A stretch of 55,663 nt of DNA from an uncultured bacterium (GTDB lineage Bacteria; Bacillota_I; Bacilli_A; RFN20; CAG-826): assembly GCA_949285325.1 (NCBI GenBank), contig CASDYZ010000032.1:1-55663 (forward strand), written 5' to 3'. Shown one piece after another: positions 34,050 to 52,017 of this stretch. A program made the translations under genes and the position numbers. The notes under the pieces are model-generated. The model did no database searches. It was not told where the DNA came from and saw nothing but the letters and a program-made list of their open reading frames with translations. Positions within the stretch are counted from its first letter, which is position 1, and each line of letters begins with the position of its first letter.

Positions 34050-35924
34050 TTAAATTTTAGTAAAAATAATTTTATTTAAATCTATGTTAAATGTTTGCTT
34101 ATTTCTTTTAAAACAAGTGTCGTCCTTACCAGCTTTTATACAGATATAATCTTCAAAGCAATCTAAATTTGCGTAAAGTAAAGTGTTATCACCTAGACTA
34201 TCCTCGTTGACACATTTAAATTTCATACATTGATGCTTATTGATTTCTTTTCTTTTATTTACTGGCGTAAAAGCATCATAAGGAATAAATAAATTATATT
34301 CACCTTCATTTAAAGATAAATCACCAATTAACTTAAAATTACCAAAGATTATCTCATTTAAGCCTTTCTTATTTTTCTTAACTAAGCACTTAGTTGTGTT
34401 AGAAATAAATTCAAAACGTGAAACAATTCTATTTTTTAGATTCTCGTCATATAAAGTGATATTTTCTAAAGGTATATATAATTTGATTTTTTCTCCTTCT
34501 TTGTATTCTCCCTTATTAAATTTTACTGCGATATAAGATTTTTTGTGCATAAGAGAGACGTAGAGTAATGACTGTTCTTTAGATTGCTCCACTATCTCAA
34601 TCTTTGCGTCTAAAACTAGATCATCATCTTTACCTTTTTCAAGTTTAAAGGCATTTGTTGGTATCTTTATTAAAATATCGTGACTGCCTCTAAATTCAGG
34701 TAATACTTTATTTTTATCTTCTTCATTTAATTTGATATCGACATTAGCGAAACTAACGACACCTTTATCGTAGTCAATCTTACTTTTTATATAATTTTCA
34801 CTCGATATACCTGAGATTCTTCTCTCATTATCTTTGTCGAATAAATGGACGTGTCTAGTGTGGAATTGGACGAAGATTTTATCTCCTTCTTTTACTTCTT
34901 TTCTCCCGTCGAGTTTAACCACAAGCGGTATGTCAGTATTTTCGATTTGAGTGTAACAAATAATTTCACTACCGAGTTTTTCAATAACGTCAACGATGAC
35001 AGGTACCGCATCTTCATCATCTTCATTCACTTCAAATATTTCTTCAGGTCTAATACCTAAAATAATATCTTTACCGATGTAAGAATATGAAATTAATTGG
35101 TGAATAGTATTGTCGTGAATATGAACTTTAAAAGTAGAATCATTTTTATTTATTACACCGACATATTTATTACCTTCTTTTAATAATTTTGCATTGAATA
35201 AATTCATTTGCGGTGAGCCTAAAAATGATGCGACAAATACATTTGCTGGATGATCGTATAAATTAGAAGGGGTATCGACTTGTTGAACGACACCATTTCT
35301 CATAACGACGATAATTGTACCCATCGTCATCGCCTCAGTTTGATCGTGAGTAACATAGACAAATGTCGTTTTAAGACGTCGGTGTAATTTTGTGATTTCA
35401 CTCCTCATCGACACTCTTAATTTCGCGTCCAAGTTTGAAAGGGGTTCATCTAACAAAAATACTTTAGGCTCTCTAACTATACTTCTACCAAGTGCAACTC
35501 TTTGACGTTGACCACCAGAAAGAGCTTTTGGTTTTCTAGAAAGATATGGTGTTAATCCTAATATTTCCGCTGCATTTTCGATTCTTTTTTTGATTTCATC
35601 TTTTGGGACTTTTGCCATTTTTAAACCAAACGCAATATTGTCGTAAACTGTCATATGTTGATAAAGGGCATAATTTTGGAAAACCATCGTTATATCTCTA
35701 TCCTTTGGAGATACATCATTGACTATTTTATCATCGATATATAAATTGCCAGATGTAATTTCTTCTAGCCCTGCAATCATTCTTAGAGTAGTTGATTTAC
35801 CGCATCCACTAGGACCGACAAAAACGACGAATTCATTATCTTTAATTTCAAGATTTAAATCGCTTACCGCTTTTACTCCCCCTTCATACACCTTGTAAAT
35901 ATGTTCAAATTTTAAGCTAGCCAT
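34050..35924 (-). CDS. sugar ABC transporter ATPase (MsmX/MalK family) with C-terminal extension
   Basis: GPSGCGKST, LSGGQRQR, LLDEPLSNLD and YVTHDQ motifs; about 250 extra C-terminal residues. Confidence 0.93.
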   Translation of the reverse strand: MASLKFEHIYKVYEGGVKAVSDLNLEIKDNEFVVFVGPSGCGKSTTLRMIAGLEEITSGNLYIDDKIVNDVSPKDRDITMVFQNYALYQHMTVYDNIAFGLKMAKVPKDEIKKRIENAAEILGLTPYLSRKPKALSGGQRQRVALGRSIVREPKVFLLDEPLSNLDAKLRVSMRSEITKLHRRLKTTFVYVTHDQTEAMTMGTIIVVMRNGVVQQVDTPSNLYDHPANVFVASFLGSPQMNLFNAKLLKEGNKYVGVINKNDSTFKVHIHDNTIHQLISYSYIGKDIILGIRPEEIFEVNEDDEDAVPVIVDVIEKLGSEIICYTQIENTDIPLVVKLDGRKEVKEGDKIFVQFHTRHVHLFDKDNERRISGISSENYIKSKIDYDKGVVSFANVDIKLNEEDKNKVLPEFRGSHDILIKIPTNAFKLEKGKDDDLVLDAKIEIVEQSKEQSLLYVSLMHKKSYIAVKFNKGEYKEGEKIKLYIPLENITLYDENLKNRIVSRFEFISNTTKCLVKKNKKGLNEIIFGNFKLIGDLSLNEGEYNLFIPYDAFTPVNKRKEINKHQCMKFKCVNEDSLGDNTLLYANLDCFEDYICIKAGKDDTCFKRNKQTFNIDLNKIIFTKI

Positions 35925-35927
35925 AAA

Positions 35928-36824
35928 CTATTCTCCTTTACTTTTGTCTAGACCTTTGTCAATTAATTCCAATGAATATTTTGAATTGATATGTTTGTCA
36001 AAGACGTGATAGGCGTAGAGGCTAAAAGAAATAGCCGAATGGGAAAAACCATAAAACACCAACAACGCCAAAAAAATAAATTGCATTATTAATAAAGGAA
36101 TAAAAAATGTTCCTATAATAAATAACATACTGACGATGACCATCAATAAATTTGATGGAAGTAAAATAATTGATAACAATAAATTATTTTTTGTAGTCGC
36201 AATAAATTTAAATTTATAAATAGAAGCACCGCAAAGAACAAAAAGAGAAAAACTTGCGACGATAACAAAAATAATACTTAGTAAAATAATTAAAATTACT
36301 TTGAGAAAAAATGGTATCTCATCCACTATCGGATAAAAATATATATTCATAAAGTATATGAATGTATAGATGCTAAAAACTACACCACTTAAAAGCGATG
36401 ATTTAATGTTAGATTTTACTCCATTAAAAAAGTCGCTCCACAAAAACAAATCACCTTCTTGAAACACCATCTTTTTAGCGACACTAAATGTTCCGCCTAA
36501 ACCGATAAAAGATAGGATAAATAAAGGTATAGAGAATAAATACTGTAGACATATGAGAGAAAAATTTTGAAATAGAATCATCTTCTCGTCTGGATTTGTA
36601 ATTAGAAATTGTTCTTTTGCGTAATTCATATATACGCCCCAAAGAAATGTAAAAATAACTAGAGGCAGGAAAAATAGACATGTAATTAAAGATAATAAAA
36701 TTAATTTAGAAAATCTATTTTTAAAAATATCAAAATACGCTTTGAAACGATTAGAAGGAAGCTTGCCGTCATTATTTTTAGAATTATCTTTATTGAAGAA
36801 ATTATAAAAACTATTTCTTTTCAT
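35928..36824 (-). CDS. YesL/DUF624-like membrane protein
   Basis: Multi-TM with WSDFFNGVKSN and Y.FK...T.KN.LLL segments typical of YesL; sugar ABC context. Confidence 0.6.
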   Translation of the reverse strand: MKRNSFYNFFNKDNSKNNDGKLPSNRFKAYFDIFKNRFSKLILLSLITCLFFLPLVIFTFLWGVYMNYAKEQFLITNPDEKMILFQNFSLICLQYLFSIPLFILSFIGLGGTFSVAKKMVFQEGDLFLWSDFFNGVKSNIKSSLLSGVVFSIYTFIYFMNIYFYPIVDEIPFFLKVILIILLSIIFVIVASFSLFVLCGASIYKFKFIATTKNNLLLSIILLPSNLLMVIVSMLFIIGTFFIPLLIMQFIFLALLVFYGFSHSAISFSLYAYHVFDKHINSKYSLELIDKGLDKSKGE

Positions 36825-37744
36825 TTTTTATTAACTCCTATAACTTCTTCTAAAGGAGGGACGACACCAATCGCACCTTTTTTTGTTGTGGCTTTTGCCC
36901 CAACAATATTAGCAAATCTAAGCAAATCCCTAATATTTTCTTCATTTTTTAATGCATTTTTATTATTATCAACCTCATATAAAATAAAAGAATAAAATGC
37001 ATCTCCCGCCCCGGTTGTGTCGAGTGCGTCAACTTTTATACTATCGACTTTTATAAGTTTGTCATCGTGATATAAAGCTGAACCTAATTTACCCAAGGAG
37101 ACAAATACATATTGATTTTTATTAAATAAATATTTAAGACCTTCTTCATATTTTTTAACGTTTGATAACAATAAAACTTCTTCTTCACTAACCTTGATTA
37201 AATCGCACTTCTTTATGACATCGATATAATATTGTTTAGATTGATTGGTATCAAAGAAGATATCGCTTCGATAATTGACATCAAAGGATATTTTTATATG
37301 AGGAAATCCTTTAAAATAATCAATCGCGTTTTTGATAAAATCTCGACCTTTTTCACTAGATAAACATAAAGAACCAAAATGAACTATATCAACCTCATTT
37401 AAATTAACATTTTCAATTAGTTCATTTAAATCAAATTGATAATCTGCCCCATCTTCTCTTATAAATTTAAAAGATCTCTCCCCCTTGTCTAAATTGACTA
37501 AAGCAATAGTCGTCTTTAAATTGTTCATTTTTTTAATAAACGTCTTCTTAAAATTTTGTCTAGAAGCAAAATCAATTAATTGTTCACCATATTTATCATT
37601 ACCAACTACACCATTAAAAATAACATCGCCTCCAAAAAAAGCGATATTTGACGCGACATTAAAAGGCGCGCCACCTGGGCGAACTTCTTCTATACTGCCA
37701 TCTTTAAATACATCGACTAATATTTCTCCAATAATCAATATCAT
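36821..37744 (-). CDS. PfkB family carbohydrate kinase (fructokinase)
   Basis: GEILVD, PGGAPFNVA, FDVNYR and DTTGAGDAF motifs; GH32 context. Confidence 0.9.
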   Translation of the reverse strand: MILIIGEILVDVFKDGSIEEVRPGGAPFNVASNIAFFGGDVIFNGVVGNDKYGEQLIDFASRQNFKKTFIKKMNNLKTTIALVNLDKGERSFKFIREDGADYQFDLNELIENVNLNEVDIVHFGSLCLSSEKGRDFIKNAIDYFKGFPHIKISFDVNYRSDIFFDTNQSKQYYIDVIKKCDLIKVSEEEVLLLSNVKKYEEGLKYLFNKNQYVFVSLGKLGSALYHDDKLIKVDSIKVDALDTTGAGDAFYSFILYEVDNNKNALKNEENIRDLLRFANIVGAKATTKKGAIGVVPPLEEVIGVNKK

Positions 37745-37746
37745 TA

Positions 37747-38703
37747 TTAAGCTGTTTCTCCTTTGACAAATGTAGTAGGAACGATGATTTTGGATTCCAC
37801 TTCTTCTTTGTCAATTCTTTTAATGAGAGTAGTTACAACTTGTCTAGCCATATTATTTAAATCTTGCTTAATGGTGGTAAATGTTGGATTTTGAATCCAA
37901 TCTCCCATACAACCATCGTAAGTTATTATTTTTAAATCGCTATTATAATTTAGTTCTCGCGCTACCCTATAAATGGCAAAGCCGAATGAATCGCTCGTCG
38001 TGAATACTGCGTCCAACTTTTTATATTTGTTTAAAAAACGTTTTGAGTGAACATATTCCTCACCGTGCCTAAAATCATCATAAAATATGTATTTTTCTAA
38101 ACCTAATTCATCACAGACATCATTATAGGCGTTATATCTTTCTAAAACTTCAGATGAGACGCTTGGCTTACCACCAATAAAACCGATATTCCTGCAGTTT
38201 AAAGAATATAAATATTTAATCGCTTTAAATGTCGCATCGTAATTATCAGAAGTTATACAAGGCACATTTTTACCAAAAAGTCTATCGATAGTCACAATCG
38301 GTAAAGAAGAATCAAAATTGTTATATTTGTTATGCGTGATAAAAATAATCCCATCAACTTGATTATTTTTTAACATCTTGATGAATTCTTCTTCTCTTTT
38401 TCTATTGTTGTCTGAATCTGTAATCAATAATTTATATCCAAATTCATGCGCGACATTTTCAATACATTCACTAATCTTTGCAAAGAAAGGATGGGAAATC
38501 ATCGGCACACATAAAGCGAGTATAAATGAACGATTAAGTTTAAGTGCTCTACCAAAAGAATTTTGTTCGTAATTTTCTTGTTCAATTACTTTTTTAATCC
38601 TTTCAGCGGCATCTTTAGATACATAACCATTGTTTAAATATCTCGATACTGTCGATTTACTCACTTTTGCTAAATTTGCAATGTCGATGATTGTCTTTCC
38701 CAT
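37747..38703 (-). CDS. LacI family repressor (ScrR-like)
   Basis: TIIDIANLAKVSKSTVSRYLNNGYVS HTH plus sugar-binding domain. Confidence 0.93.
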   Translation of the reverse strand: MGKTIIDIANLAKVSKSTVSRYLNNGYVSKDAAERIKKVIEQENYEQNSFGRALKLNRSFILALCVPMISHPFFAKISECIENVAHEFGYKLLITDSDNNRKREEEFIKMLKNNQVDGIIFITHNKYNNFDSSLPIVTIDRLFGKNVPCITSDNYDATFKAIKYLYSLNCRNIGFIGGKPSVSSEVLERYNAYNDVCDELGLEKYIFYDDFRHGEEYVHSKRFLNKYKKLDAVFTTSDSFGFAIYRVARELNYNSDLKIITYDGCMGDWIQNPTFTTIKQDLNNMARQVVTTLIKRIDKEEVESKIIVPTTFVKGETA

Positions 38704-38724
38704 CCTTAATGAGCCTTTCTAATT

Positions 38725-40722
38725 TTAACCTCTATTAGTTTTTTTCTTCTTACTAATATAGATTAACGCAAATGCGATGATACTTAAAGAAAGAACACCA
38801 ACAATTATGATAGTTGAATCTTTAATTGATGAACTTAATTCAAGAGTCGCACGCAATCCATTTGTTGAAAGTTGAGAATTAATATAACTCATCGTGTCAC
38901 TTACTTCACATAAATCAATCTCGGTAGTATAAACTTCGCCACAATAAGAATAATCCATGGAATTAGAAACAATTTCTTGTGCTTGTTCACTTAAATTTGA
39001 GTAAGTAGTTTCAAGCAATTGTTTAACTTCATTATATAATTCAGTATTGTTATCATTTATCATCGAACAATATGTGAAACCATTCTCAGTACTTCTTAAA
39101 GTAGAATAATATTGACTCATGAAATCATATGCTTCTTTCATCACATCGTTTGATGTATTTTCATCATCTAAAGTACTATCTTCTACATATATATCTTTAA
39201 CGACACCATAAAGATTAACATTTTCTCCACTAATAGTGCCATTTTGATTGATAACACCAAGTTTAAATGATGGAAGAGTGTCATAATATGTAACTAATTC
39301 GTCAAAGAATACACACCCCCAATTTCCACCAGTACGGTAGTCAGCTAACGCGATGATAATTTTTTGTCCTAAATAATCACTTAAATCGATTATGTGTCGA
39401 GTCATGGTGTTTAATCGTCCGTTGCCTCTCACTGAATCAACATTATCAAAGAATGCTTTATTAGTTACTTCATAAAGTAGTTCATGATTATCAGCGTTTA
39501 AAACTTGAACTGCAGATGAATTGCCCGCCATCTTGATAGAAATTAATCCGTTTCCGCTCAAAGTGAAAGCTGGAGACAATAAACGATATTTTTCAGTTTC
39601 AACAAAGCCGTTATCCCAACCTCGATAGAATTTATCGTCAGTTTTGTTGTACGGCATGTGTTCAGCCCACGGAGCGTGTTCTTCGCTACTAATCGCGTTT
39701 GCGAATGGAATGTAATAAGGTTGATTTAAAGTGGTTGTAGGGACAGTCTCGCCTTCTTGAACTTCTCCACTATATACAACATCTCTTGCGCTAAAATTGA
39801 GATCATACGCCCAGTCTAATAAATGTCCATCTTCAAAGCCTTCATTTAAATTGGTGATATTTGTTGAATAAGTGCCGTCTTCATTAATTGTTAATCCATT
39901 TGCTCTAACTACACTATATTCATCAGCAGTTCTATAAACATCGATAATATAATCTCTTGCTCTAGTATTATAATTAGCATTCGCGTCAAGCCCTTCACTT
40001 GGAATAGCGTGTTCACCATCATAAGGATTATATGGATAATGTGTAGTGTTATTTAAATCAATTACATTTCTTAAATCTTCGATATGGGCGGCTACACTCT
40101 TAACGACATCATCGATATTTTGATTGACTTGAAGCGCGCCAAAAGTCACCATACCAAAACCACCAGTTCTTTCATCAATTATTTGTAAATATAGTTGTTG
40201 TCCTTGATATTTACTTGGAATTTCAACAACTTTTGTAATCATATTGACAGAAAGATATGGATCATTAAATTGATCGTTAGTGATAGTTTTTACAACTTCA
40301 TCACCTTCAACTGTTTTAATTTCAACTCTATTTTGTGTAGTTTCGCCATTCACTTGAGGTCTTCCGCCTAAGGTGAAGGTGATGTAATCTTCAGTTTGTA
40401 CGAACGACTTGCTTGTAATTGTACCAGTCCAAGTTTCATGTCTATTACCATCGTAGAAATTATCCATCGCATTAAAATAACGATAATTCCAGAATGTACC
40501 ATATCTATCAGTCGTATACGCCGATGGTTTTAATTCCTCTTGCCCTTCACTAAGCTGTGTGCTATGAAAAGTGAAATTTGCATCGTTAAAAGGAATATAT
40601 TTTTCCACTTCTTCTTGAGCAGATACATTTGTTGTAAGAGGGGCATCAACAGTCATAAGTCCGCCGAAGGCAAATGCGGATATAGCCATTAAGCCAGTGC
40701 CTAAAAGTAAATACTTCTTCAT
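38725..40722 (-). CDS. non-catalytic surface protein: signal peptide, two CBM38-like modules, helical domain, C-terminal TM anchor
   Basis: Signal peptide ending VSA; two copies of the module shared with neighbouring genes; ends in a hydrophobic helix + KKKK. Confidence 0.7.
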   Translation of the reverse strand: MKKYLLLGTGLMAISAFAFGGLMTVDAPLTTNVSAQEEVEKYIPFNDANFTFHSTQLSEGQEELKPSAYTTDRYGTFWNYRYFNAMDNFYDGNRHETWTGTITSKSFVQTEDYITFTLGGRPQVNGETTQNRVEIKTVEGDEVVKTITNDQFNDPYLSVNMITKVVEIPSKYQGQQLYLQIIDERTGGFGMVTFGALQVNQNIDDVVKSVAAHIEDLRNVIDLNNTTHYPYNPYDGEHAIPSEGLDANANYNTRARDYIIDVYRTADEYSVVRANGLTINEDGTYSTNITNLNEGFEDGHLLDWAYDLNFSARDVVYSGEVQEGETVPTTTLNQPYYIPFANAISSEEHAPWAEHMPYNKTDDKFYRGWDNGFVETEKYRLLSPAFTLSGNGLISIKMAGNSSAVQVLNADNHELLYEVTNKAFFDNVDSVRGNGRLNTMTRHIIDLSDYLGQKIIIALADYRTGGNWGCVFFDELVTYYDTLPSFKLGVINQNGTISGENVNLYGVVKDIYVEDSTLDDENTSNDVMKEAYDFMSQYYSTLRSTENGFTYCSMINDNNTELYNEVKQLLETTYSNLSEQAQEIVSNSMDYSYCGEVYTTEIDLCEVSDTMSYINSQLSTNGLRATLELSSSIKDSTIIIVGVLSLSIIAFALIYISKKKKTNRG

Positions 40723-40739
40723 TTTATTTTTCCTCCTTT

Positions 40740-42947: not shown

Positions 42948-44373
42948 TTTCTTCTCCTTTAGTTTCTTTATATTCATATTTAATAAAATTAGTAATATTA
43001 ATATTGCTATCATTTTCGTTATCAAAACAAACACCATATTCTCCACATGCAAAATATAGTGCGGAGAACGCATATTTATTGTTGATTAATATTTCGATAC
43101 ATGAATGGTCAATCAATATGTCGAAATGAAGTTTATCGACACCTTCATCAATCAATATTTTTCTAACATTCGCATCACTTCCATCTTGATTAAAAATATA
43201 TTCAAAAGAATCTTCTCTAGAAAAAAGTATAGTTTCATCACTTTTATCGATATAAATATAAAAACCTTTACCATTAGAATTATATAGGCTGATAATCCCA
43301 TTTTTATCGATTTGAATATTAAATTTATAACGCACTATTGGGCTATTTGACTTAAATTCGCATTGATTTTCAACTTTAAAGTCGTCTATTTGATTTATAT
43401 TTTTTACATATTTTTTTAATCCGTCATCATTAAAATATTGATAGATATAATTGTTTTCTACTTTTAAGATTCTAGGCACGATAAACTGACCTGCATAACC
43501 TAAAAATTCGCTAGGGAAATTTCTATCCCACATCGCTTGCCACGCGACGAGGTAGTTAATATTGTCGTGTCTTAAAGTTTGAGAAGCATAAAAATCAAAA
43601 CCATAATCGAGTTGTATCTCGTCGCTTGTAGGAACAAATTTAATGTTGTCAAAATCAAATTTACCAATTAAAGCGATTGTTGAATGTATGTTTTGATATT
43701 TATATTTAGAAGTAGATTTTTTATACTGTGGGGAACAGAATAAAATACATTCGTCATTTTGTTCATTTAAAAATAAAATGTCGCAGCATTCAAGCATGCC
43801 GTTACTTAAATTATTCATTTCAAAAATTGGTCCTAGATAGGTGACATCCTTAAAATCTTTAGTTCTAAATAAGATTAGATGTGAACCATCTTCTTTGACT
43901 TTCGCGCCGACAAGTACATAAAAATAACCATGACGGAAAAATATCTTAGGGTCTCTAAAATTATTAATATCATATATAGAAGGCAAATTATGCCTATCTA
44001 TAAATGGATTTAAATCGCTTTTTATATAATTGAGTCCATCAGTAGAAGAGGCGATACACTGCGTCTGCACTTTATCTTTAACACCTGTATAAACTAAATA
44101 ATGTTTTTTATCAATTTCAGTCGCGGAGCCAGAAAAACATCCATCGCCATTATCGTAAGGTTTATCAGGACATAAAGCGATACCCACTTCATCCCATTTA
44201 ATTAGATCTTCACTGACAAAATGTAGCCAGTGCATCGGCCCCCATTTAGTGTCAAATGGATTGTGTTGGGCGAAAAGATGATATTTTCCATCGAAGAAAG
44301 AAAAACCATTAGGGTCATTAATCCATCCTTTGTGGGCGGTGATATGAAAAATAGGTCGATAATCTTTATTCAT
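42934..44373 (-). CDS. GH32 beta-fructofuranosidase, cytoplasmic
   Basis: WINDPNG, FSGSA, FRDP and EC motifs; no signal peptide. Confidence 0.92.
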   Translation of the reverse strand: MNKDYRPIFHITAHKGWINDPNGFSFFDGKYHLFAQHNPFDTKWGPMHWLHFVSEDLIKWDEVGIALCPDKPYDNGDGCFSGSATEIDKKHYLVYTGVKDKVQTQCIASSTDGLNYIKSDLNPFIDRHNLPSIYDINNFRDPKIFFRHGYFYVLVGAKVKEDGSHLILFRTKDFKDVTYLGPIFEMNNLSNGMLECCDILFLNEQNDECILFCSPQYKKSTSKYKYQNIHSTIALIGKFDFDNIKFVPTSDEIQLDYGFDFYASQTLRHDNINYLVAWQAMWDRNFPSEFLGYAGQFIVPRILKVENNYIYQYFNDDGLKKYVKNINQIDDFKVENQCEFKSNSPIVRYKFNIQIDKNGIISLYNSNGKGFYIYIDKSDETILFSREDSFEYIFNQDGSDANVRKILIDEGVDKLHFDILIDHSCIEILINNKYAFSALYFACGEYGVCFDNENDSNINITNFIKYEYKETKGEENDEK

Positions 44374-44374
44374 A

Positions 44375-46429
44375 TTAATTCACCTCAATATCGTGGAAGA
44401 CACCACTGGTAAGATGTGCGCTTCCCCCTTCAGTAAAGAAAGAAATATCTTTTCCTGCTTCACTAGGAAAAATAAGCCCGCTCATCGTGTAATATCCATC
44501 ATTAATAAATAATTCAACACTTGAAACATCGACAAATATCTCAAATTTAATTTTGTTGTCGATTGGTTCAATTCGTGCATATCTGACATTTAGTTCTCCA
44601 TCGTCATCAAAGGAGTCAATATCGACACCACTGTTACGCCTATCAAATACGACCATACCTAAAAAATCATCATAGTAAATATTAGTAGATTCATTTTCGC
44701 TTTGAAGGAGTTTAAAACCAGCTTTCCCACCATTTAAATTAGATACATCAATTTCAACATTTAAATGAATTTTATCGCCTTTAACGTCTAATTTAATTTC
44801 ATTATCACTACATTCGATTTCATTCAAAATAGTCTCGTTTTGATAGTAATTTTGTATTTCTTGTATTGGTTTTTGATAAATATGATTATCTTTTAATTCT
44901 AGTTCTCTAGGCAAGGTAACTTCACCTGCATAGCCATCTATCGCACTAGGATAACTTCTCGACCACATATTCATCCACGCGAGCATTATGGTCCTATCTT
45001 CTTCTTGATAAATCTGAGTGGCATAAAAATCAAAACCTTTATCAAATTCCTCCATGTAGTCGACACCATTATCATTTGTAAATATACCGTTTTCAAAATC
45101 GAGATTACCGATCTGATAAGTGACAGAATGGATATTTTGATATGACGCTTTATCCGCGTCTCTTATAGATTGTGGAGAAGTTATAATAATGTCTTTACCA
45201 TCCATATAGGCATAATTTGGACATTCAAACATCCCGCTTCCTGTAATGGTGGAAGAATAAATACTACCTATCGTTTTCCAATTTAATAAATCGGAGGAAG
45301 AATATAAAAGAAGTTGACCTCCTTCACCTTCTAGTTTCCCACCAATCAACGCGTAATAAACATCGTCTTTAACAAATAAATATGGATCTCTAAAATCAGT
45401 GATTCGCGAATTTAGTCTCATAGATGAATCAATAACTGGGTTCATATTTCTCTTAGTGAAAGATACGCCATCAAAACTAGTGGCGAGAGCTTGTTGTTGC
45501 ACCCCTGTTTCACCTACCGCGGTGTATAGTAGATGCATCTTATCTCCATCTACCACCGCACCTCCAGAAAATACACCATTTTTATCGTAACTTTTATCAG
45601 GTGCAAGTGCGATAGAGGCATCTGTCCACTTAATTAAATCTTTACTTATCGCGTGTCCCCAATACATCGTATCCCAGCTAGGAGAATATGGATTATGTTG
45701 ATAAAACAAATGATAGTAACCATCGTAATAAACAAAACCATTAGGGTCGTTCATCCATCCTATAGTAGGCATGAGATGATATGTGTGTCTATATCTATCA
45801 TTGACTGTGTCTTTGTATTTAAGCGTGTAATTTCTCGCGTCGCTCAATAAAGTTCCATCATCTTCATTCAAAGAAGAAGATATTTCAAAATCATCGACCA
45901 TTATGTAGTTATAACCACTATTAGAAGAATCATTGTCATTAAGTTGAACATATAATTGTTCACCTATATATTCTTTTAAATCGACGACGATACGGTACAT
46001 CCTATTATTCGGTACTTCGTGATTAAAAAATTTATTACTAATTCTTGTTATTTCTTCACCAGTGTCATCTTTATGGATTGACACATAGACTAAATCAGGG
46101 TTTGCCCCTCCTCCAATCAAGAAACTAATTTTACCATTTCCTTTAAGTTTAAATGATGTTGATTTAAGTGTACCAACCGCCTCATTACCGACACTTTCTC
46201 CACTTAAATAAAAATTACCTTCGACGTGAATTTTATCTTTATTTGAATCACTTATCAAAACACAAGTATCGTTAAAAGCGTCCCCACTTATCGTCCAATT
46301 AGAAAGCGTCCCTAACTCAAAATCTCCATTGGTAAAAGTGTAAGGTTTATCACTTGAGGAAGTAGAGCAAGATGAAGAGGAGATAGTTAAAAATAAAATT
46401 AACAAAGGGGCAAATTTATTTTTTTTCAT
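44375..46429 (-). CDS. GH32 exo-type fructan hydrolase lipoprotein with N-terminal CBM38-like module
   Basis: Signal peptide ending SSSC; NGDFELGTLSNW module; WMNDPNG, FSGGA, FRDP and MFECP motifs. Confidence 0.9.
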   Translation of the reverse strand: MKKNKFAPLLILFLTISSSSCSTSSSDKPYTFTNGDFELGTLSNWTISGDAFNDTCVLISDSNKDKIHVEGNFYLSGESVGNEAVGTLKSTSFKLKGNGKISFLIGGGANPDLVYVSIHKDDTGEEITRISNKFFNHEVPNNRMYRIVVDLKEYIGEQLYVQLNDNDSSNSGYNYIMVDDFEISSSLNEDDGTLLSDARNYTLKYKDTVNDRYRHTYHLMPTIGWMNDPNGFVYYDGYYHLFYQHNPYSPSWDTMYWGHAISKDLIKWTDASIALAPDKSYDKNGVFSGGAVVDGDKMHLLYTAVGETGVQQQALATSFDGVSFTKRNMNPVIDSSMRLNSRITDFRDPYLFVKDDVYYALIGGKLEGEGGQLLLYSSSDLLNWKTIGSIYSSTITGSGMFECPNYAYMDGKDIIITSPQSIRDADKASYQNIHSVTYQIGNLDFENGIFTNDNGVDYMEEFDKGFDFYATQIYQEEDRTIMLAWMNMWSRSYPSAIDGYAGEVTLPRELELKDNHIYQKPIQEIQNYYQNETILNEIECSDNEIKLDVKGDKIHLNVEIDVSNLNGGKAGFKLLQSENESTNIYYDDFLGMVVFDRRNSGVDIDSFDDDGELNVRYARIEPIDNKIKFEIFVDVSSVELFINDGYYTMSGLIFPSEAGKDISFFTEGGSAHLTSGVFHDIEVN

Positions 46430-48783
46430 TAATATATCCCCTCCAAATTGTTCATCACAAAACTCGATATAATACTAGAAGTTTCTATTTTTGTATATAA
46501 AGCATCAAAAGAAGAAGGATAACTCCTCAAAGATATAGTTTTTTCATTGTTAAAGACAACTTCGACACAACTTCTATCGACATATAAATCAATTTCAATC
46601 GATGAAGCATCGCTTATTTGTCCACTAAAATCTCCGCCACTCAAAGAAGAATTATTGCCATTTAAAGTGTTGACTGCCCCAACGATGTTATTAGCAGGAT
46701 CAACATAAATAGATGTATATTCACTCTCATCGCTAGTCATCCTCGTCTTAATCGTTAATGGAGAAGAGAGATTTTCAACACTTAATTTAATATTAAACAT
46801 ATCGCTACTTATGTCTTTAATATTCATGTTGATTTCATCTGCGCTTAGATTGACACCATCAAAAACTACTCCACTAGATAAATTAGAGACAACGTCATCG
46901 ATGATAGATATATTTAAATCGTTGGTGTTGGTATTATAGTTAATAACACGTGGTAAACCAACATTATGTGACCAGCCAGAACTTGCTAAATCAATAGATT
47001 CTCTCGACGATTGTAAAATTGAGAAAATAATAGTCTCACCACTCACTGGATCAATAAAACCACTTGGGCCAGTAAAGATATTTTTACCATAATCCATTCG
47101 GCGAGGATCTTTAAAATCTGGAATAAATCTAAATGTATCTTTATTAAATTTACCAATCCAATAGATGATATTATTGTCTGCGGTTGACGCGGGCGCAGGT
47201 GAAATAATAAATATCCATTTATTTGTTTCGTTGTTATTCTCATCTTTTAAAGGAAGTAGGACAGGTAACTCCCATACAGTACCGTATTTAGAGTCACTAT
47301 TATCATAATCAAAGACATGACCTTTATATTCCCAGTTATGAAAATAATCTGTTTTATTCGCATTAGTGTAATAAATGAGGGCGGTGCCTCGAGAAGAGTT
47401 TTCATCCCCACTTCCAATGATTAAATAATAATCATCACCATCTTTATAAATGTGTGGATCTCTAAATTCTCCACTTCTTCCTTGTCCACTTTCTTGAGCA
47501 ATTGCAAGCTCATCATCAATTATCCATTCAGTTAAATATGGATCAGATAAATCTTTAGGTTTAGCCATACCGACATTTTGATTTGAAACTAGACCAGAAT
47601 GAACATAATCACCAGCGGTAAAAAATAAAGTAGGTACACCATCTTTATCGTAAGTAGACGCGCCAGACCACACCCCGTCAGGACATACACTATCAGCGGT
47701 AGGGACGACAACTTCTTTTCTAGGTGTCCAATTAACCATATCTTCACTAGTTAGGTGTCCCCAACAAATACCACGCGCGTCATTGAAATATGGACCATTA
47801 GGATTGAATTGGAAAAATAAATGATAGACACCGTTATAATATATAGGGGCGTGTGGCTCATTCATCCAATGCTCGTATGGACCTCCGTGATATTGTGGTT
47901 TATATACATCAGTCGTAAGTGTATTTTGAATCCAAACATCATTAAAATTAACTTCTTTAATTTCGCCATCAACTAAACAAGTTTCATAATATTCTCTATA
48001 ATCTTTAAAAGTTAAAACTGAATCATAAAACCTAAGTTCATCTAATAGTCCAGAAATAACTCCTTCTGAACAATCTCCCGATGAGGTGGCGACAGTGTTT
48101 TTACCAATTAAAAGTGGTAAGTCGCATCCAACAATTTTAGAAGAGGCAGGTATTTCCATCCTGTTGGCGATTACACCATTGACATATAAAAGCATCTCAC
48201 CATTTACTCCGTCGAAGACTGCAAGGACACTGTTCCATTCATATTGATTTAAAGGTGTACCTTCATCATAAAGTTGATACCATCCACTTTCTGTTCCTAC
48301 TCCAAAAGTGACTTTACCATCTCTTTTGTATCCAAGTTGAAAACCAGAAGCATAACTATCATCTTTATAATATTGACTAGCAATCGCTTGTATTAAATCA
48401 TCTTTAGAATTTTGATCACTCCAATTGTACGCGCGAGGCGCAATCCAAGCGGATATAGAGAAACTATCACCTTCTACTTTATATTCACCACTATCGATGG
48501 AGGCAAAAGTAGAATAGCCATCAAACACCATCGCGTCATCAAATATCCCTTCTTTAAATTGAATGTTTATTGGTGATGGTAGGGTTTGTGATTCTAATAA
48601 GTGATAGCTCATCTTGATAGAATCTATATGTTTAGATGAATCTATTAATAGCGATTCATTATTTTCTTCAAATTTAAAATACGCTTTTAAGTTTTGTTCA
48701 TACGCCATTCCAGTAGAATTAGAACAAGAGACACTTGCCAAAGATAAAAATAATAAAAAACTAATACTCAATATTTTTTTCAT
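46429..48783 (-). CDS. LamG-GH32 lipoprotein, cycloinulo-oligosaccharide fructanotransferase / endo-fructanase-like
   Basis: Signal peptide ending SVSC; LamG motifs (FSISAWI, LYVNG, GLLDELRFY); WMNEPHAP, WSGAS, FRDP and VWELP motifs. Confidence 0.82.
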   Translation of the reverse strand: MKKILSISFLLFLSLASVSCSNSTGMAYEQNLKAYFKFEENNESLLIDSSKHIDSIKMSYHLLESQTLPSPINIQFKEGIFDDAMVFDGYSTFASIDSGEYKVEGDSFSISAWIAPRAYNWSDQNSKDDLIQAIASQYYKDDSYASGFQLGYKRDGKVTFGVGTESGWYQLYDEGTPLNQYEWNSVLAVFDGVNGEMLLYVNGVIANRMEIPASSKIVGCDLPLLIGKNTVATSSGDCSEGVISGLLDELRFYDSVLTFKDYREYYETCLVDGEIKEVNFNDVWIQNTLTTDVYKPQYHGGPYEHWMNEPHAPIYYNGVYHLFFQFNPNGPYFNDARGICWGHLTSEDMVNWTPRKEVVVPTADSVCPDGVWSGASTYDKDGVPTLFFTAGDYVHSGLVSNQNVGMAKPKDLSDPYLTEWIIDDELAIAQESGQGRSGEFRDPHIYKDGDDYYLIIGSGDENSSRGTALIYYTNANKTDYFHNWEYKGHVFDYDNSDSKYGTVWELPVLLPLKDENNNETNKWIFIISPAPASTADNNIIYWIGKFNKDTFRFIPDFKDPRRMDYGKNIFTGPSGFIDPVSGETIIFSILQSSRESIDLASSGWSHNVGLPRVINYNTNTNDLNISIIDDVVSNLSSGVVFDGVNLSADEINMNIKDISSDMFNIKLSVENLSSPLTIKTRMTSDESEYTSIYVDPANNIVGAVNTLNGNNSSLSGGDFSGQISDASSIEIDLYVDRSCVEVVFNNEKTISLRSYPSSFDALYTKIETSSIISSFVMNNLEGIY

Positions 48784-48786
48784 AAA

Positions 48787-49698
48787 TTATTTTAGTCCGG
48801 TAAAACTAACTCCTTCCACGATGTATTTTTGGGCAAAAATATAGACGAGTGCGATAGGTATAGTTGAAAAAGTCAAAGACGCCATTACGACTCCAATATC
48901 TTTAGGAGAAGCAGTATTGACTAACTGTAAGAATACTTGTAGAGGTTGAAAGGCTGGGTTAGGGAACATAAATTGTGCAAAGATATATTCATTCCACTGC
49001 CCCATGAAAGTAAATATTGCTACGGTTGCAAAAATTGGTTTTGAAAGTGGGACTATCATCCTAAAAAACACTCCGACTCTCGAACATCCATCAATTCTCG
49101 CAGCTTCTTCAATCTCGATAGGCATTCCTAAAAAATATTGTCTAAACATATAAGTGTAAAATAAGGAAGCAAAACCTGGTAAAAGATAACCAATGACACT
49201 GACTGGTTCAGTGAGTAAACCTAAATAATACAAAATTAAATATGTCGGGACGATACTAGTTTCAACCGGGATAATCATCAACAATAAAATGATGGTTGTC
49301 ATCGCCTTATTGCCTGGGAATTTAAATCTAGCAAGTGCATATCCCGCTAAAGAATTTATAATTAATACCATAACAATTGTCACCGTGCAGTAGACAATTG
49401 AATTTAAAATAGAACGTCCAAAATATTCAAAAGTATCAAATAACTTAATATAGGATACAAACCATTCACTTATGTTCCATGAAGGTGGTAAAAATGTAAA
49501 GATGCTATTCATTTGAGCATACACTTGCTCGTCTGTCTTAAATGAATTTGATACCATCCAAACAATAGGGAAGAGGAAAATGAACACTAAAAAAGCACAT
49601 AGAAAAGCAATAGATATTTTTATCAACAATTTAGATATTGATATTTTCTTTTTTGGTTTATGTAAAGAATATATGCGGTTAGTATTGATGCTTTTCAT
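48787..49698 (-). CDS. carbohydrate ABC permease (MalG-like)
   Basis: EAA loop IEEAARIDGC; AGYALAR and FMGQWNEY motifs. Confidence 0.93.
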   Translation of the reverse strand: MKSINTNRIYSLHKPKKKISISKLLIKISIAFLCAFLVFIFLFPIVWMVSNSFKTDEQVYAQMNSIFTFLPPSWNISEWFVSYIKLFDTFEYFGRSILNSIVYCTVTIVMVLIINSLAGYALARFKFPGNKAMTTIILLLMIIPVETSIVPTYLILYYLGLLTEPVSVIGYLLPGFASLFYTYMFRQYFLGMPIEIEEAARIDGCSRVGVFFRMIVPLSKPIFATVAIFTFMGQWNEYIFAQFMFPNPAFQPLQVFLQLVNTASPKDIGVVMASLTFSTIPIALVYIFAQKYIVEGVSFTGLK

Positions 49699-49700
49699 AA

Positions 49701-50636
49701 TTATGCTTGGTTATCTCCTCCTAATACTTTTCTTAAAGTGAGTGATATTGTCGCGATAATAAAGGTATAGAGTAAGGCGATCGCACTCGAATAACCAACG
49801 TCGCGGTATTCGACACCAGTTTTATAAATGTAAAAGGACATAGTCATAGTCGAACCAAGTGGTCCACCATCAGTCATAATCATCGGTTGAATGCAAATTC
49901 TAAAAGCACCGATAAGCATAGTTATAAAAACAAATACGAGAGTTGGCTTAATTGAAGGGAGGGTGACGTGGATAAATTGTTGCCACTTATTTGCCCTGTC
50001 GATAGAAGCGGCCTCATACATATCTTTAGATATATTTTTCAGCCCACTTAAAATGATGAGCATCTGATATCCTGCACCTTGCCAAGCAGATATAAATATG
50101 ATGCACGGCATAGCTTGATTAGGATCTTCTAAAAAGAGCGCGGGATTTGCCCCTAGTGCGAGTAAAAATGTATTTATAAGTCCTTCTTGAGAATTTAACA
50201 AATTCATCCAAAGCATTGAGGTGACCGCTAAAGAGAGCATAACCGGGACAAAAAATGCCCAACGCAAGAAAGTGTTGAAACGCTTGACGTGATTTAAAAG
50301 AAGTGCGAGTCCTAATGCAGTGCCAAATTGAAGAGGCATGACACCTAAGACAAATATCAAAGTGTTTTTAAGTGCGTTTCTAATTTCTACGTCTTCAAAA
50401 GCTCTTAAAAAATTATCAAAACCGATAAAATTAACTCTATCGAGTCTTAGCATATTCGCGTCAGTAAATGCATAAGTTAATGATATAAATATTGGTAAGA
50501 AAACAAAAATTGCCGCCAGAACGAAACACGGTAGGAGAAAAAGTATACCAGTTACTGCTTCTTTAGTATTGTATTCACTCTTACCAAATGTGAAGTGTGT
50601 TTTCTTTTTTCTAGCGACAATATTGTTAATTTTCAT
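49701..50636 (-). CDS. carbohydrate ABC permease (MalF-like)
   Basis: FIGFDNF, EAA loop MYEAASIDRA and MTDGGP motifs. Confidence 0.93.
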   Translation of the reverse strand: MKINNIVARKKKTHFTFGKSEYNTKEAVTGILFLLPCFVLAAIFVFLPIFISLTYAFTDANMLRLDRVNFIGFDNFLRAFEDVEIRNALKNTLIFVLGVMPLQFGTALGLALLLNHVKRFNTFLRWAFFVPVMLSLAVTSMLWMNLLNSQEGLINTFLLALGANPALFLEDPNQAMPCIIFISAWQGAGYQMLIILSGLKNISKDMYEAASIDRANKWQQFIHVTLPSIKPTLVFVFITMLIGAFRICIQPMIMTDGGPLGSTMTMSFYIYKTGVEYRDVGYSSAIALLYTFIIATISLTLRKVLGGDNQA

Positions 50637-50639
50637 ATT

Positions 50640-51983
50640 TTATGCTCTGGCGGCATCCACTCTTTCCATTTGTTCTCTAATTTGATTTTCTAAATCGTAA
50701 TTAGACACTAAATTCATGTTTTTGATGTAATTTAAAACTTCTCCATACGCATCTTTTAAAACTGGATATTTAACCATTTGAGGACGTGTATATTGATTAG
50801 ATACGAGATATGAAGCGAGGTCTTGTTCTGGACCACTTTTAAATTCTTCCATAGTATCTAAAAGATTTTTATTAGTTGGGAATGTACCAATCGCGTCATA
50901 CATCATCTTTGATGCAGTCTCGCCAGTTAAATATGTAAGTACGATTGTTGACGCTTCAATATTTTTGCTATCGTTAGTGATACCAAATCCATACGAACCA
51001 CAAGGTGAAGCGACAATATCGCTTTTATTTCCGCTTTCATCTTCATAGACAGGATATGGCATAATTCCATAATTATCTTTAAATGCTGAATCAGATTTTT
51101 TAATTTCTCTCGCATCCCATGGACCATGGATTTGGAAAGGAATTAATTCTTGGGCAAAAGCATTTTCGTTCGTGCCGTTATATACCCAAGATTCACTACC
51201 TGTTAATCCTTCGTTTGAATAAAACATTTCAAGTTGGGCGATGCCTGATATTGCTTCTTGAGTAGTAAGGGCTTCTGTGACGTGATCATCTGTACCAAAA
51301 TTTGCCCCTGCAGAATATACTAGTCCAGAATAAAGATACATATTACCATCAGTACCAAAATTTTGATTTAATGCGATTTGATATTCTAAGCCGGCGTCTT
51401 TCAATACTTGTTGAGCAGTATGAACATCTTTCCAAGACCAAGGATTTTCTAAAGTACCAAAGTCTTCTTCAGTATAGCCAACTTGCTTTAATAAATTTTT
51501 GTTGTAATAAAGTCCGCCTGGAGCTTCCATTCCAGAAAGGAAATACATTTTACCATCGATCGTACCTTGTTTGATAACGCTGTCGACATAGGTGTTTTTA
51601 ACTTCATCACTTAAATATTCATCAAAAGACACAATAATATCGTTGTAAACTTTTGCGGCGACATCACTAGAGTCAACCGCGACGATATCTGGAAGTGAAT
51701 TAGTCATAATTGAGGCATTAATTTTATCTTCTAAAGTCGTACCCCAAAACGACATGGATATGCGAAGTTGAGTGCCATCGCTTGTCGTATAACCGGCGTT
51801 GTTGAAGTTGGTTTGAAGTTGCTTATATATTTTACCTTCATCTTCTGTTTCATTTTTATGAACCCAAACAGTGACGATTTTAACTCCATCTTCTTCACTT
51901 GGTTCTCCACCTCCACATGATGTAAAAACAAATGCACTTGTCAAAACAAGAGACATTAAAATTGGTAGTTTAAATTTTCTCAT
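50640..51983 (-). CDS. carbohydrate ABC solute-binding lipoprotein
   Basis: Lipobox FTSC; LPDI, LYYNKNLL and HGPW motifs of family 1 solute-binding proteins. Confidence 0.9.
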   Translation of the reverse strand: MRKFKLPILMSLVLTSAFVFTSCGGGEPSEEDGVKIVTVWVHKNETEDEGKIYKQLQTNFNNAGYTTSDGTQLRISMSFWGTTLEDKINASIMTNSLPDIVAVDSSDVAAKVYNDIIVSFDEYLSDEVKNTYVDSVIKQGTIDGKMYFLSGMEAPGGLYYNKNLLKQVGYTEEDFGTLENPWSWKDVHTAQQVLKDAGLEYQIALNQNFGTDGNMYLYSGLVYSAGANFGTDDHVTEALTTQEAISGIAQLEMFYSNEGLTGSESWVYNGTNENAFAQELIPFQIHGPWDAREIKKSDSAFKDNYGIMPYPVYEDESGNKSDIVASPCGSYGFGITNDSKNIEASTIVLTYLTGETASKMMYDAIGTFPTNKNLLDTMEEFKSGPEQDLASYLVSNQYTRPQMVKYPVLKDAYGEVLNYIKNMNLVSNYDLENQIREQMERVDAARA

Positions 51984-51998
51984 AACTTATTCTCCTTG

Positions 51999-52012
51999 TG
52001 GGAACGATACCA
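51999..52012. promoter_or_regulatory. LacI/cre-type operator upstream of the fructan locus
   Basis: TGGGAACGATACCA pseudo-palindrome with central CG, between the promoter and the AAGGAG RBS. Confidence 0.65.
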
Positions 52013-52017
52013 TATAT

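Follow-up and report, generated by a model that had tools for sequence, protein, structure and literature searches.

The twelve genes described here probably form a single LacI-controlled operon for the use of fructans, of inulin or levan type, in a small and probably wall-less member of the Bacilli from the bird gut. They occupy positions 34050-51983 of the 55,663-nucleotide stretch of DNA that was analysed (the window) and all lie on the minus strand, with spacings of -14 to +21 nt (gaps or overlaps, taken from the coordinates), in agreement with the co-oriented, tightly packed cluster of the original prediction. Fructan chains would be retained at the membrane by two non-catalytic surface proteins, the lipid-anchored SurfD with its three modules and SurfE, which has two and is anchored by a C-terminal helix. 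GH32A, a lipid-anchored enzyme with a CFTase-type LamG-GH32 core and Glu at the nucleophile position, would cut the polymer internally or transfer fructosyl chains, and GH32B, also lipid-anchored and with one module and classical exo-type motifs, would trim the chain ends. The resulting oligosaccharides could be imported by way of a lipoprotein SBP, two permeases and a long MsmX-type ATPase, perhaps with the aid of a DUF624-like membrane protein, and hydrolysed by the cytoplasmic GH32C. Fructose would then be phosphorylated by a PfkB kinase and the pieces would enter glycolysis. LacI is expected to act as the repressor, at a palindrome of 18 bp located between the -10 box and the ribosome-binding site.

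Gene content and promoter region

The import genes SBP (50640..51983), a lipoprotein of a CUT1-type ABC importer (Pfam SBP_bac_1 and SBP_bac_8), ABC permease 1 (49701..50636) and ABC permease 2 (48787..49698; both Pfam BPD_transp_1) come first. They are followed by the lipoproteins GH32A (46429..48783; Pfam Laminin_G_3, GH32N and GH32C) and GH32B (44375..46429; one module with Pfam GH32N and GH32C), and by the cytoplasmic enzyme GH32C (42934..44373; Pfam GH32N and GH32C), in which neither a signal peptide nor a hydrophobic segment was found. SurfD (40740..42947), a lipoprotein, combines three modules with helical linkers and a single Ig-like domain in its AF2 model. SurfE (38725..40722) starts with a signal-like N-terminus, carries two diverged modules and has both a helical domain and a membrane anchor at its C-terminal end. 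The last four genes encode a LacI-family regulator (37747..38703; Pfam LacI HTH and Peripla_BP_1/3), a PfkB-family sugar kinase (36821..37744; Pfam PfkB), a multi-pass membrane protein (35928..36824) and an MsmX/MalK-type ABC ATPase (34050..35924; Pfam ABC_tran, OB_MalK and TOBE_2, and NCBIfam). Lipobox cysteines of SBP, GH32A, GH32B and SurfD were identified by eye in the translations. A longer SurfD reading frame from 43073 was rejected in favour of the ATG at 42947, and SurfE was rejected as a lipoprotein in view of its N-terminal signal-like helix and its C-terminal membrane helix at residues 631-659 (AF2 model and hydrophobic segments). A tblastn search of the 1.15-Mb genome (E<=1e-5) found GH32, the module and SBP nowhere outside this locus.

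The PfkB kinase is probably a fructokinase, its top NCBIfam match being to fructokinase with an E of 6e-51, under that model's cut-off. The membrane protein had been called YesL-like; it is indeed a multi-pass protein, but its match to DUF624 (E 0.025; 15.2 bits, where the cut-off is 24.2) falls short of that label, and a match to the MusI family (NCBIfam, E 4e-4) is also sub-threshold. The ATPase is 624 aa long, about 250 aa beyond the MalK/UgpC models that it matched; the excess is a C-terminal extension, residues 371-500 of which are similar to the protein's own TOBE region, and the full length is kept across the syntenic loci. The oligosaccharide-binding proteins of solved structure that SBP matches are all distant, the best having an E of 3.6e-10, and it is not near any solved fructo-oligosaccharide binder.

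A promoter-like site, TTGACA-16-TATTAT, lies on the minus strand at 52018..52045, 35 nt upstream of the SBP start, and has the top score of the scan (11/12). Such sites are in no excess across the region (101, against 102.8 in shuffles), so that this one is weak on its own. Between its -10 box and the ribosome-binding site lies a candidate LacI-type operator (51997..52014), a palindrome of 18 bp that is imperfect and centred on CG. This sequence is kept in four of five upstream regions; G001, G024 and G029 have it in the same position before the SBP gene, and in G029 the palindrome is perfect. Matches to it number one in the window, against 0.04 expected, and one in the entire genome.

Co-conservation of the genes across relatives was also borne out. 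SurfD matches were found in eight of 41 relatives, counting G000, and the gene order is identical in five of the six loci retrieved.

The surface modules and their relatives

The module, about 170 aa long, occurs in six copies on three surface proteins, as had been proposed and as all-against-all BLASTP and alignment confirm: B1 (45830..46357) on GH32B, D1 (42276..42869), D2 (41676..42239) and D3 (40821..41333) on SurfD, and E1 (40078..40605) and E2 (39253..39885) on SurfE, all on the minus strand. In the BLASTP comparison, residues 31-209 of GH32B match 239-423 of SurfD with 37.6% identity (E 1e-23), and residues 274-707 of SurfD match 77-481 of SurfE (E 9e-31). Seven columns of the six-copy alignment are invariant, and the copies share 24-39% identity with the first one. 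Those of SurfE have diverged strongly, with 24-26% identity to D2. The N-terminal 200 or so residues of GH32B are without a Pfam match, and SurfD and SurfE have no Pfam family above cut-off; the two are the non-catalytic multi-module surface proteins of the original prediction, SurfD with three copies and SurfE with two.

The AF2 models (pLDDT 91 for SurfD, whose fold matches are CBMs, and 80.5 for SurfE) give the module a beta-sandwich fold. CBMs are its top structural neighbours (Z 10-13), led by the porphyran-binding CBM 8xmz (Z 13.1, rmsd 2.9, 133 aligned) and CBM61 2xom (Z 11.9), with CBM16 and CBM4-2 next. A profile of the six copies found 1688 cluster representatives at E<=1e-3 among 1.84 billion, and GH32 is also present in 18 of the best 150 matches. 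In the class, the module was found in 28 of 399 scored genomes; a hand cross-tabulation of the 27 besides G000 placed it within about 2 kb of GH32 in 16, while ten were without GH32 and one had GH32 unlinked. A Christensenella MAG encodes SBP, permease, permease, a WMNEP-type GH32 lipoprotein and then a five-module non-catalytic lipoprotein, in a similar split form. Related modules are also fused to GH125 in GH130/GH125 loci (G021, G135 and G180) and, in G103, make up a five-module lipoprotein whose gene has a GH97 gene on one side and GH66 and GH31 genes on the other. Belonging to the family does not by itself fix a specificity. Because the wider family is found in mannoside and dextran loci as well, it is their context that suggests fructan binding by the window modules.

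All six window modules fall in sets of exclusively fructan-labelled rows in a module tree of 57 rows (quick search, SH-aLRT support). Four lie in a 24-row set (98) and two in a 13-row set (93, with a nested 7-row set at 99), and the modules of mannoside loci (15 rows, 90) and of dextran loci (5 rows, 96) are separate. Among the 31 'fructan' rows, twelve belong to SurfD homologues whose label was assigned by homology, and these are therefore not independent.

It could be argued that SurfD and SurfE bind some other glycan, of host or dietary origin, or are adhesins, and merely ride in the operon. The module family does turn up in mannoside loci, in dextran loci and in genomes that lack GH32, and the diverged SurfE modules sit on long branches in the tree. 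However, every one of the six modules clusters with modules fused to GH32, D2 shares 38% identity with the module that GH32B carries, fusions of LamG-GH32 with the module exist, and five relatives from the families f1, f4 and f6 retain SurfD and SurfE in their place between GH32C and LacI, all of which makes a role unrelated to fructan quite unlikely.

The GH32 enzymes and the comparison with CFTase

Pfam GH32N, the five-bladed propeller of the N-terminal part, and GH32C, the beta-sandwich that follows it, both score above their cut-offs in each of the three enzymes. The catalytic motifs of GH32 proteins are WMNDPNG, which holds the nucleophile, RDP, and EC with the acid/base Glu. Their counterparts are present in all three enzymes, as WMNDPNG, FRDP and ECP in GH32B, as WINDPNG, FRDP and ECC in GH32C, and as WMNEPHAP, FRDP and WELP in GH32A, where Glu replaces Asp. 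In endo-inulinases, the Glu of WMNEPNG has been called critical (PMC6042768), and GH32A is predicted from this one motif and from its relatives to be a surface endo-acting fructanase or fructotransferase. GH32B, whose nearest solved relatives are exo-acting beta-fructofuranosidases and a sucrose-6-P hydrolase, is predicted to be a surface exo-fructosidase. The similarity of GH32B and GH32C to sucrose-6-phosphate hydrolases and beta-fructofuranosidases would also suit a plain operon for sucrose or short fructo-oligosaccharides, with the surface GH32s trimming small sugars and no polymer capture. This is very unlikely, since small sugars would call neither for three GH32s, two of them lipid-anchored, nor for six CBM-fold modules on three surface proteins, nor for an enzyme of the endo or transferase type predicted for GH32A.

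One of the nearest known systems is cycloinulo-oligosaccharide fructanotransferase (CFTase), which the locus had been proposed to resemble in a split form. P0107, a Paenibacillus-type protein about 60% identical to proteins of some 35 Paenibacillus genomes, has modules at residues 34-210, 223-393 and 406-556, GH32 at 815-1295 and a further module at 1331-1490. The window-module profile matches these four repeats at E 1e-122, and the link to CBM38 runs via P0107, whose likeness to the published dbCAN arrangement CBM38x3-GH32-CBM38 is one of layout. That arrangement, in a Defluviitalea protein, is CBM38(44-189)+CBM38(221-367)+CBM38(409-527)+GH32(808-1121)+CBM38(1313-1448) (PMC7355431). In the CFTase of P. 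macerans, CBM38 spans residues 32-389 and consists of a pair of beta-sandwiches with levan and inulin as ligands (PMC10076258); the window modules, judged by their AF2 models and CBM neighbours, have a fold of the type expected of CBM38, a beta-sandwich of about 150-180 aa.

A Laminin_G_3 and GH32 core was present in all six module-GH32 fused proteins scanned. GH32A is 35% identical over 737 aa to the LamG-GH32 core of P0107 (residues 586-1295; E 1e-126), and for 14 of 18 fused proteins its identity to their GH32 part is 35-41%. Since the modules are related to CFTase-type repeats and GH32A is collinear with the core, binding and catalysis appear to be split here and fused elsewhere. The idea of a split CFTase thus stands as regards domain architecture, the modules grouping with GH32-fused clades, but not as regards a CFTase proper, which joins modules and GH32 core in one polypeptide, for GH32A is without a module. 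CFTase of Paenibacillus and Bacillus has beta-sandwich modules of the same clade, a Laminin_G_3 and GH32 core and Glu at the nucleophile position, all as in the window. In contrast, it is one secreted polypeptide, whereas the window distributes these blocks over four membrane-tethered proteins, and the CFTase-type core and GH32A share 35% identity.

GH32A could in theory be a true CFTase, making rings that few competitors use and that are taken up by SBP and its importer and opened inside by GH32C, in parallel to the cyclodextrin pathways. The nearest relatives detected for GH32A are the LamG-GH32 cores of module-flanked proteins of CFTase-type layout, and SBP, which has no close solved relative, has weak matches that include maltodextrin-binding proteins and 2zyk, a solute-binding protein for cyclodextrin or maltodextrin. 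Such a route is nonetheless unlikely, as the Paenibacillus-type core is only 35% identical to GH32A, P0107 and its Paenibacillus relatives are no more than putative cyclising enzymes, rings would offer little to a surface exo-enzyme such as GH32B, and the Glu-type nucleophile motif is common to plain endo-inulinases (PMC6042768). A broader proposal is similarly doubtful: SurfD and SurfE would supply inulin at a naked membrane to the tethered GH32A, and the rings would be private goods, secured by dedicated SBP/ABC uptake and opening by GH32C, as one instance of a wider class of module-built surface binders. If true, it would provide a fructan counterpart of the cyclodextrin pathways, and the wider class would replace binders of the SusE/F type in fructan, dextran and mannoside loci of single-membrane bacteria.

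Known systems, host and habitat

Taken as an operon for fructan use, the locus is not the new system that it had been proposed to be. Sheridan et al. (2016) define a Gram-positive polysaccharide utilisation locus (gpPUL) by an enzyme that degrades polysaccharide, a system for carbohydrate transport and a regulator of transcription (PMC5320581). The locus fits this definition. At least one such enzyme is asked for, and the window has three GH32 genes; transport falls to SBP together with the two BPD_transp_1 permeases and the ABC ATPase, and a LacI-family gene is accompanied by the conserved palindrome at the promoter. Fructan gpPULs with GH32, an ABC transporter, LacI and fructokinase have already been published (PMC5320581). 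Eub-3 and Eub-4 of Eubacterium rectale and Roseburia unite these four in one locus, as the window does, but with one GH32 (joined in some strains of Eub-4 by CBM66) rather than three, and the account of them describes no non-catalytic binding proteins, whereas the window has two multi-module surface proteins (PMC5320581).

No SusC-like or SusD-like Pfam match was found among the twelve window proteins, which sets the locus apart from the Sus-like PULs of Bacteroidota. The levan system of Bacteroides thetaiotaomicron is said to combine SusC/D with a glycan-binding protein at the surface and the endo-levanase BT1760. The window resembles it, as far as that system is reported, in its predicted surface binders, surface endo-GH32, importer and internal exo-GH32 activity, and differs in the lack of an outer membrane and of SusC/SusD, in its ABC importer and in binders of another fold family. 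The Sus-like, 'selfish' foraging of the original prediction is no more than an inference for this locus. Gram-positive starch degraders offer a further comparison in Sas6 and Sas20 of Ruminococcus bromii, non-catalytic multi-CBM surface proteins that are anchored by dockerin and cohesin. Like SurfD and SurfE, they are stand-alone, CBM-built surface proteins that help a monoderm to hold polymer; unlike them, they use other CBM families, act on another substrate and are not anchored by lipid or helix. CBM66 of Bacillus subtilis SacC is likewise a non-catalytic beta-sandwich joined to GH32 that binds fructan (PMC10076258, PMC5320581). It belongs to a different CBM family and was not detected in the window, the LamG domain of GH32A giving no match to solved CBM66 at E<=0.1.

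The description of the apparatus as a Gram-positive surface is doubtful. Neither a PBP transpeptidase nor a sortase was found in the genome, which is 97.8% complete, so that this surface is probably a naked membrane. Contigs from a metatranscriptome-library run cover SBP, permease 1, GH32A, GH32B, SurfD and SurfE, a weak hint of expression because DNA can occur in such libraries. Contigs with matching DNA come from seven studies. Of these, contigs of a bird metagenome (X3) and of a chicken-gut metagenome (X7) match the compared DNA at about 97-98% identity, with all 30 of its bins covered.

Organization of the operon and its flanks

Twelve minus-strand ORFs, separated by intergenic distances of -14 to +21 nt, fill positions 34050-51983 of contig C32 in the genome G000 (1.15 Mb, 67 contigs, 97.8% complete, 32.5% G+C). 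With families assigned by Pfam and NCBIfam, the products in order of transcription are a solute-binding protein (SBP; SBP_bac_1), two permeases (BPD_transp_1), GH32A (784 aa; Laminin_G_3, then the GH32N and GH32C domains), GH32B (684 aa; some 200 aa without a family, then GH32N and GH32C domains) and the protein GH32C (479 aa; GH32 alone, without a signal peptide). These are followed by two proteins that reach the cut-off of no family, SurfD (735 aa from an ATG at 42947) and SurfE (665 aa), then by a LacI-family regulator recognized by Pfam/NCBIfam, a PfkB kinase whose top NCBIfam match, fructokinase, is below cut-off, a 298-aa multi-pass membrane protein and a 624-aa MalK/UgpC-type (MsmX/MalK-type) ATPase (34050-35924). 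Small corrections aside, these ORF and family calls show the coordinates and gene list of the original prediction to be right. Read from the protein sequences, a lipobox cysteine ends the signal peptide of the SBP, GH32A, GH32B and SurfD; SurfE has a hydrophobic helix at its N-terminus and, at its C-terminus, a membrane helix with lysines behind it. A search of the genome found no further GH32, module or SBP genes outside the operon.

The flanks are unrelated to the operon. Downstream by 107 nt on the minus strand, a 244-aa multi-pass membrane ORF (33208-33942) has no Pfam family and no tblastn match in six loci of relatives (L011-L016), which argues that it probably lies outside the conserved operon. 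A MatE gene also lies downstream, on the opposite strand. Upstream is an AT-rich stretch of ~1.7 kb without long ORFs (51984-53700; 26% G+C), within which 0.8 kb of DNA precedes a minus-strand tRNA-Leu(caa) gene (52784-52869); a Fic-family gene lies farther on (54664-55602).

The top promoter-like site of the region is TTGACA-16-TATTAT at 52045-52018, from a scan that overall was not above chance. An 18-bp imperfect palindrome (51997-52014) lies between this site and the AAGGAG ribosome-binding site. It recurs at the same position in the relatives G001 and G024 and is perfect in G029, and so is present in four of five upstream regions; it was not seen upstream of the G027 operon, where the gene start is uncertain. 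With up to three mismatches allowed, the palindrome has a single match in the window (0.04 expected) and a single match in the whole G000 genome. Its conserved position and genome-wide uniqueness fit a LacI-type operator serving this operon alone.

The repeated module and its family

BLASTP among the 12 proteins, with alignment, places a ~170-aa module once at the N-terminus of GH32B, three times on SurfD and twice on SurfE, bearing out the six copies on three surface proteins originally predicted. The copies are 24-39% identical to the second SurfD copy, with seven invariant columns in the six-copy alignment. In the AlphaFold model of SurfD (49 sequences, pLDDT 91, pTM 0.70), beta-sandwiches at residues 31-205, 240-399 and 541-728 are accompanied by helical linkers and a small Ig-like sandwich (454-534). 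The SurfE model (33 sequences, pLDDT 80.5) has two module-like sandwiches, a membrane helix and a helical C-terminal domain; the C-terminal region matches no Pfam family even at E<=10. By sequence, SurfD has no match among solved structures at E<=1. Foldseek with the whole three-module model gave multi-domain matches only, at low TM-scores, and a second fold comparison, of the modules, gave clean single-domain matches to CBMs: the porphyran-binding CBM 8xmz (Z 13.1), CBM61 (2xom, Z 11.9), and CBM16 and CBM4-2 (Z ~10.5), with MAM domains at a similar level. The modelled modules thus resemble CBMs, a shared fold from which the ligand is not deducible.

A profile of the six copies, searched against 1.84 billion cluster representatives, matched 1688 proteins at E<=1e-3, 728 at 1e-10 and 279 at 1e-30. 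Among the best 150 matches, which are biased to many-copy proteins, 18 have a GH32 domain and 132 lack one. The Paenibacillus-type fusion P0107 (1495 aa) has a GH32 region between three modules and a fourth one, and is ~60% identical to proteins from ~35 Paenibacillus genomes. This layout is that published for a Defluviitalea protein, annotated by dbCAN as CBM38(44-189)+CBM38(221-367)+CBM38(409-527)+GH32(808-1121)+CBM38(1313-1448) (PMC7355431). Residues 32-389 of the cycloinulo-oligosaccharide fructanotransferase (CFTase) of P. macerans are described as CBM38, a pair of beta-sandwiches with levan and inulin as ligands (PMC10076258). The modules are thus putative members of CBM38, an indirect assignment that sequence and layout support well. 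The surface proteins themselves are nameless: in searches for relatives of SurfD and SurfE, the five named of 83 matches and the two named of 82 are all called 'hypothetical protein', as are the only clusters found in the ESM Atlas (best score 0.91). The main texts of open-access papers and preprints yielded no description of stand-alone CBM38-type surface proteins and no paper on fructan loci in wall-less Bacilli.

As a family, the module appears not to be fructan-specific, judging from the genes that accompany it. Of the genomes sampled from the class, 399 could be scored and two could not; the module is present at E<=1e-8 in 28 of the 399. GH32 was sought in 31 genomes, namely the 27 module-bearing ones besides G000 and four further module-bearing relatives. 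By hand cross-tabulation, 16 of the 27 have a module within ~2 kb of GH32 and one has GH32 on another contig; in the other 10 GH32 was not found. Modules are held by a GH130 locus in three of these 10 GH32-less genomes, identified by Pfam in G021 and G135 and suggested in G180 (L059, C2) by a module layout parallel to that of G135. Modules are fused to a GH125 alpha-mannosidase in G021 (locus L016, contig C15) and G135 (L058, C1), and they also occur in other large lipoproteins. The G021 and G135 loci have GH130 and F5/8-type-C genes, to which G021 adds DUF1861, an SBP and two permeases. These GH125/GH130 loci appear to follow the plan of the window operon, with mannosides or N-glycans as the likely substrate. 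In G103 (L060, C12:9000-28999), the ORF at 7123-10671 encodes a lipoprotein of 1182 aa that has five modules besides Ig-like domains and lacks an enzyme domain, and lies between a GH97 gene and genes for GH66 (the dextranase family) and GH31; its product is a candidate dextran-binding surface protein.

A quick maximum-likelihood tree was made of 57 modules, using domain matches with i-E<1e-6 that cover 120 or more profile positions. The six window modules all group with fructan-labelled rows only. One branch sets apart the 15 rows from mannoside loci (SH-aLRT 90), and another the five rows from dextran loci (96). A correspondence between module clade and locus substrate is only suggested by this tree, since 12 of its 31 'fructan' rows are SurfD homologues labelled by homology (the other 19 being physically fused to GH32), only four non-fructan genomes were sampled and the SurfE modules form long branches. 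From this locus, non-catalytic surface proteins built of several such modules appear to make up a large family without a name, with members in fructan, dextran and mannoside loci. Provided that the modules recognize the substrates of their own loci, these proteins would serve single-membrane bacteria as surface glycan binders, and would be easy targets for binding assays and markers of fructan use in poultry and other gut metagenomes.

The GH32 enzymes and the split architecture

GH32A carries the features of the enzyme part of the fused proteins. Laminin_G_3 directly precedes GH32 in all six fused proteins scanned (of 18), as it does in GH32A, and GH32A aligns to P0107 residues 586-1295 over 737 columns (35% identity, E 1e-126). 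Over the GH32 part, GH32A shares 35-41% identity with 14 of the 18 fused proteins but only ~24-25% with GH32B and GH32C. Its motifs are WMNEPHAP, FRDP and WELP; of the 18 fused proteins, 11 also read WMNEP, and P0107 has Glu at the aligned position. The Glu in WMNEPNG has been described as a mark of endo-inulinases (PMC6042768). GH32B and GH32C, with WMNDPNG and WINDPNG respectively, FRDP, and ECP and ECC, have their nearest relatives among exo-acting beta-fructofuranosidases and sucrose-6-phosphate hydrolases.

By architecture and alignment, GH32A corresponds to the core of the module-flanked CFTase-type enzymes. Since it matches the LamG-GH32 core of the fused proteins, the description 'split CFTase' in the original prediction is a fair statement about domains; GH32A may hydrolyse or may cyclise, and a cyclofructan route is a possibility for the locus. 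The predicted activities would form three tiers, endo-/transferase-type and exo-type outside the cell and exo-type inside. As this locus shows, a CFTase-type enzyme can have its parts distributed over several membrane-tethered proteins. In most of the Paenibacillus/Fontibacillus loci (L017-L050), the 3-kb flank of the CFTase-type gene also contains an ordinary GH32 gene, usually 1-2 kb upstream, and in a few a PfkB kinase gene as well. No homologues of the window SBP or permeases were found in the 3-kb flanks of the Paenibacillus CFTase-type genes, and those loci are therefore uninformative on the importer.

Conservation, transport and life at the membrane

The cluster is conserved across related genomes. 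SurfD relatives occur in eight of 41 genomes of a genus, family and order sample (G000 included), and the same genes in the same order were found in five of six relatives' loci examined (G001, G024, G018, G027 and G029), which fall under three family codes (f1, f4, f6) within the order. Among the shared genes are those of SurfD, a SurfE-like protein, the membrane protein and the long ATPase; in G029 there are two LamG-GH32 genes, and the contig stops short of the ATPase. The locus type is also present in other families of the class (G149, G403), and it reaches Clostridia: a Christensenella MAG has an SBP, two permeases and an 821-aa WMNEP-type GH32 lipoprotein, then an 1144-aa lipoprotein with five modules and no GH32.

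The ATPase has a C-terminal extension of ~250 aa (residues 371-624; 34053-34814) that matches no Pfam family even at E<=10. Residues 371-500 resemble the TOBE region of the same protein (25% over 87 aa, pairwise E 9e-6), a hint of additional TOBE-like repeats. The syntenic ATPases of G001, G024, G018 and G027 likewise have the full 624 aa, and a paralogue on contig C2 aligns to residue 495. Some bacilli share one MsmX among importers, unlike G000. Elsewhere in G000, five further pairs of CUT1-type permease matches lie on contigs C2, C7, C23, C40 and C61 (C40 having a match for only one permease), with an MsmX-like ATPase match within a few kb on four of the five (C2, C7, C23 and C61).

No match to the PBP transpeptidase family or to sortase was found in the G000 genome which, at 97.8% completeness, indicates a probably wall-less cell. 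The single, weak Mur-ligase match (E 3e-9) is, at a guess, a folylpolyglutamate-synthase-type gene. Relatives' protein records bear the names 'Tenericutes bacterium', 'Bacilli bacterium' and 'Candidatus Enteromonas sp.', and loss of peptidoglycan genes has been reported in gut lineages of this group (PMC7301438). Lipid- and helix-anchored proteins of a wall-less cell would face the medium directly, making capture and cleavage of polymer at a naked membrane physically plausible.

With polysaccharide-degrading enzymes, a carbohydrate transporter and a transcriptional regulator, the locus has all three defining features of a gpPUL (Gram-positive polysaccharide utilisation locus). Its logic is PUL logic, and its biochemistry is predictable. 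Like the published fructan gpPULs (PMC5320581), it has GH32, an ABC transporter, LacI and a probable fructokinase, but it adds two non-catalytic multi-module surface proteins, a predicted three-tier GH32 set, its own long ATPase and a probably wall-less host. There is no SusC/D in the operon, to which 'Sus-like' would apply by analogy only. Fructans (inulin, levan, cereal fructans) are major prebiotics and feed components, and competition for these polymers by monoderm or wall-less gut bacteria is far less understood than the Bacteroides Sus paradigm. The points of note here are the split architecture, an unnamed module-protein family that extends across substrates and a possible cyclofructan route.

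Near-identical DNA is present in runs of seven studies, of bird, chicken-gut or animal faeces metagenomes, the best-matching run being possibly the source; runs X19 and X20, with a small share of words, were left out of the comparison. Two runs of other studies span the whole compared stretch at ~97-98% identity. Contigs of X13, a metatranscriptome-library run, cover six operon genes, no more than a hint of transcription; its gaps at 33500-34767 and 36036-37937, over most of the ATPase, membrane protein and kinase genes, are uninformative on the length of the operon and on its transcription. In SurfE, contigs of X13, X3 and X7 share an in-frame 3-base insertion behind 40363 along with ~2-3% substitutions, which points to a close strain relative widespread in bird-gut samples.
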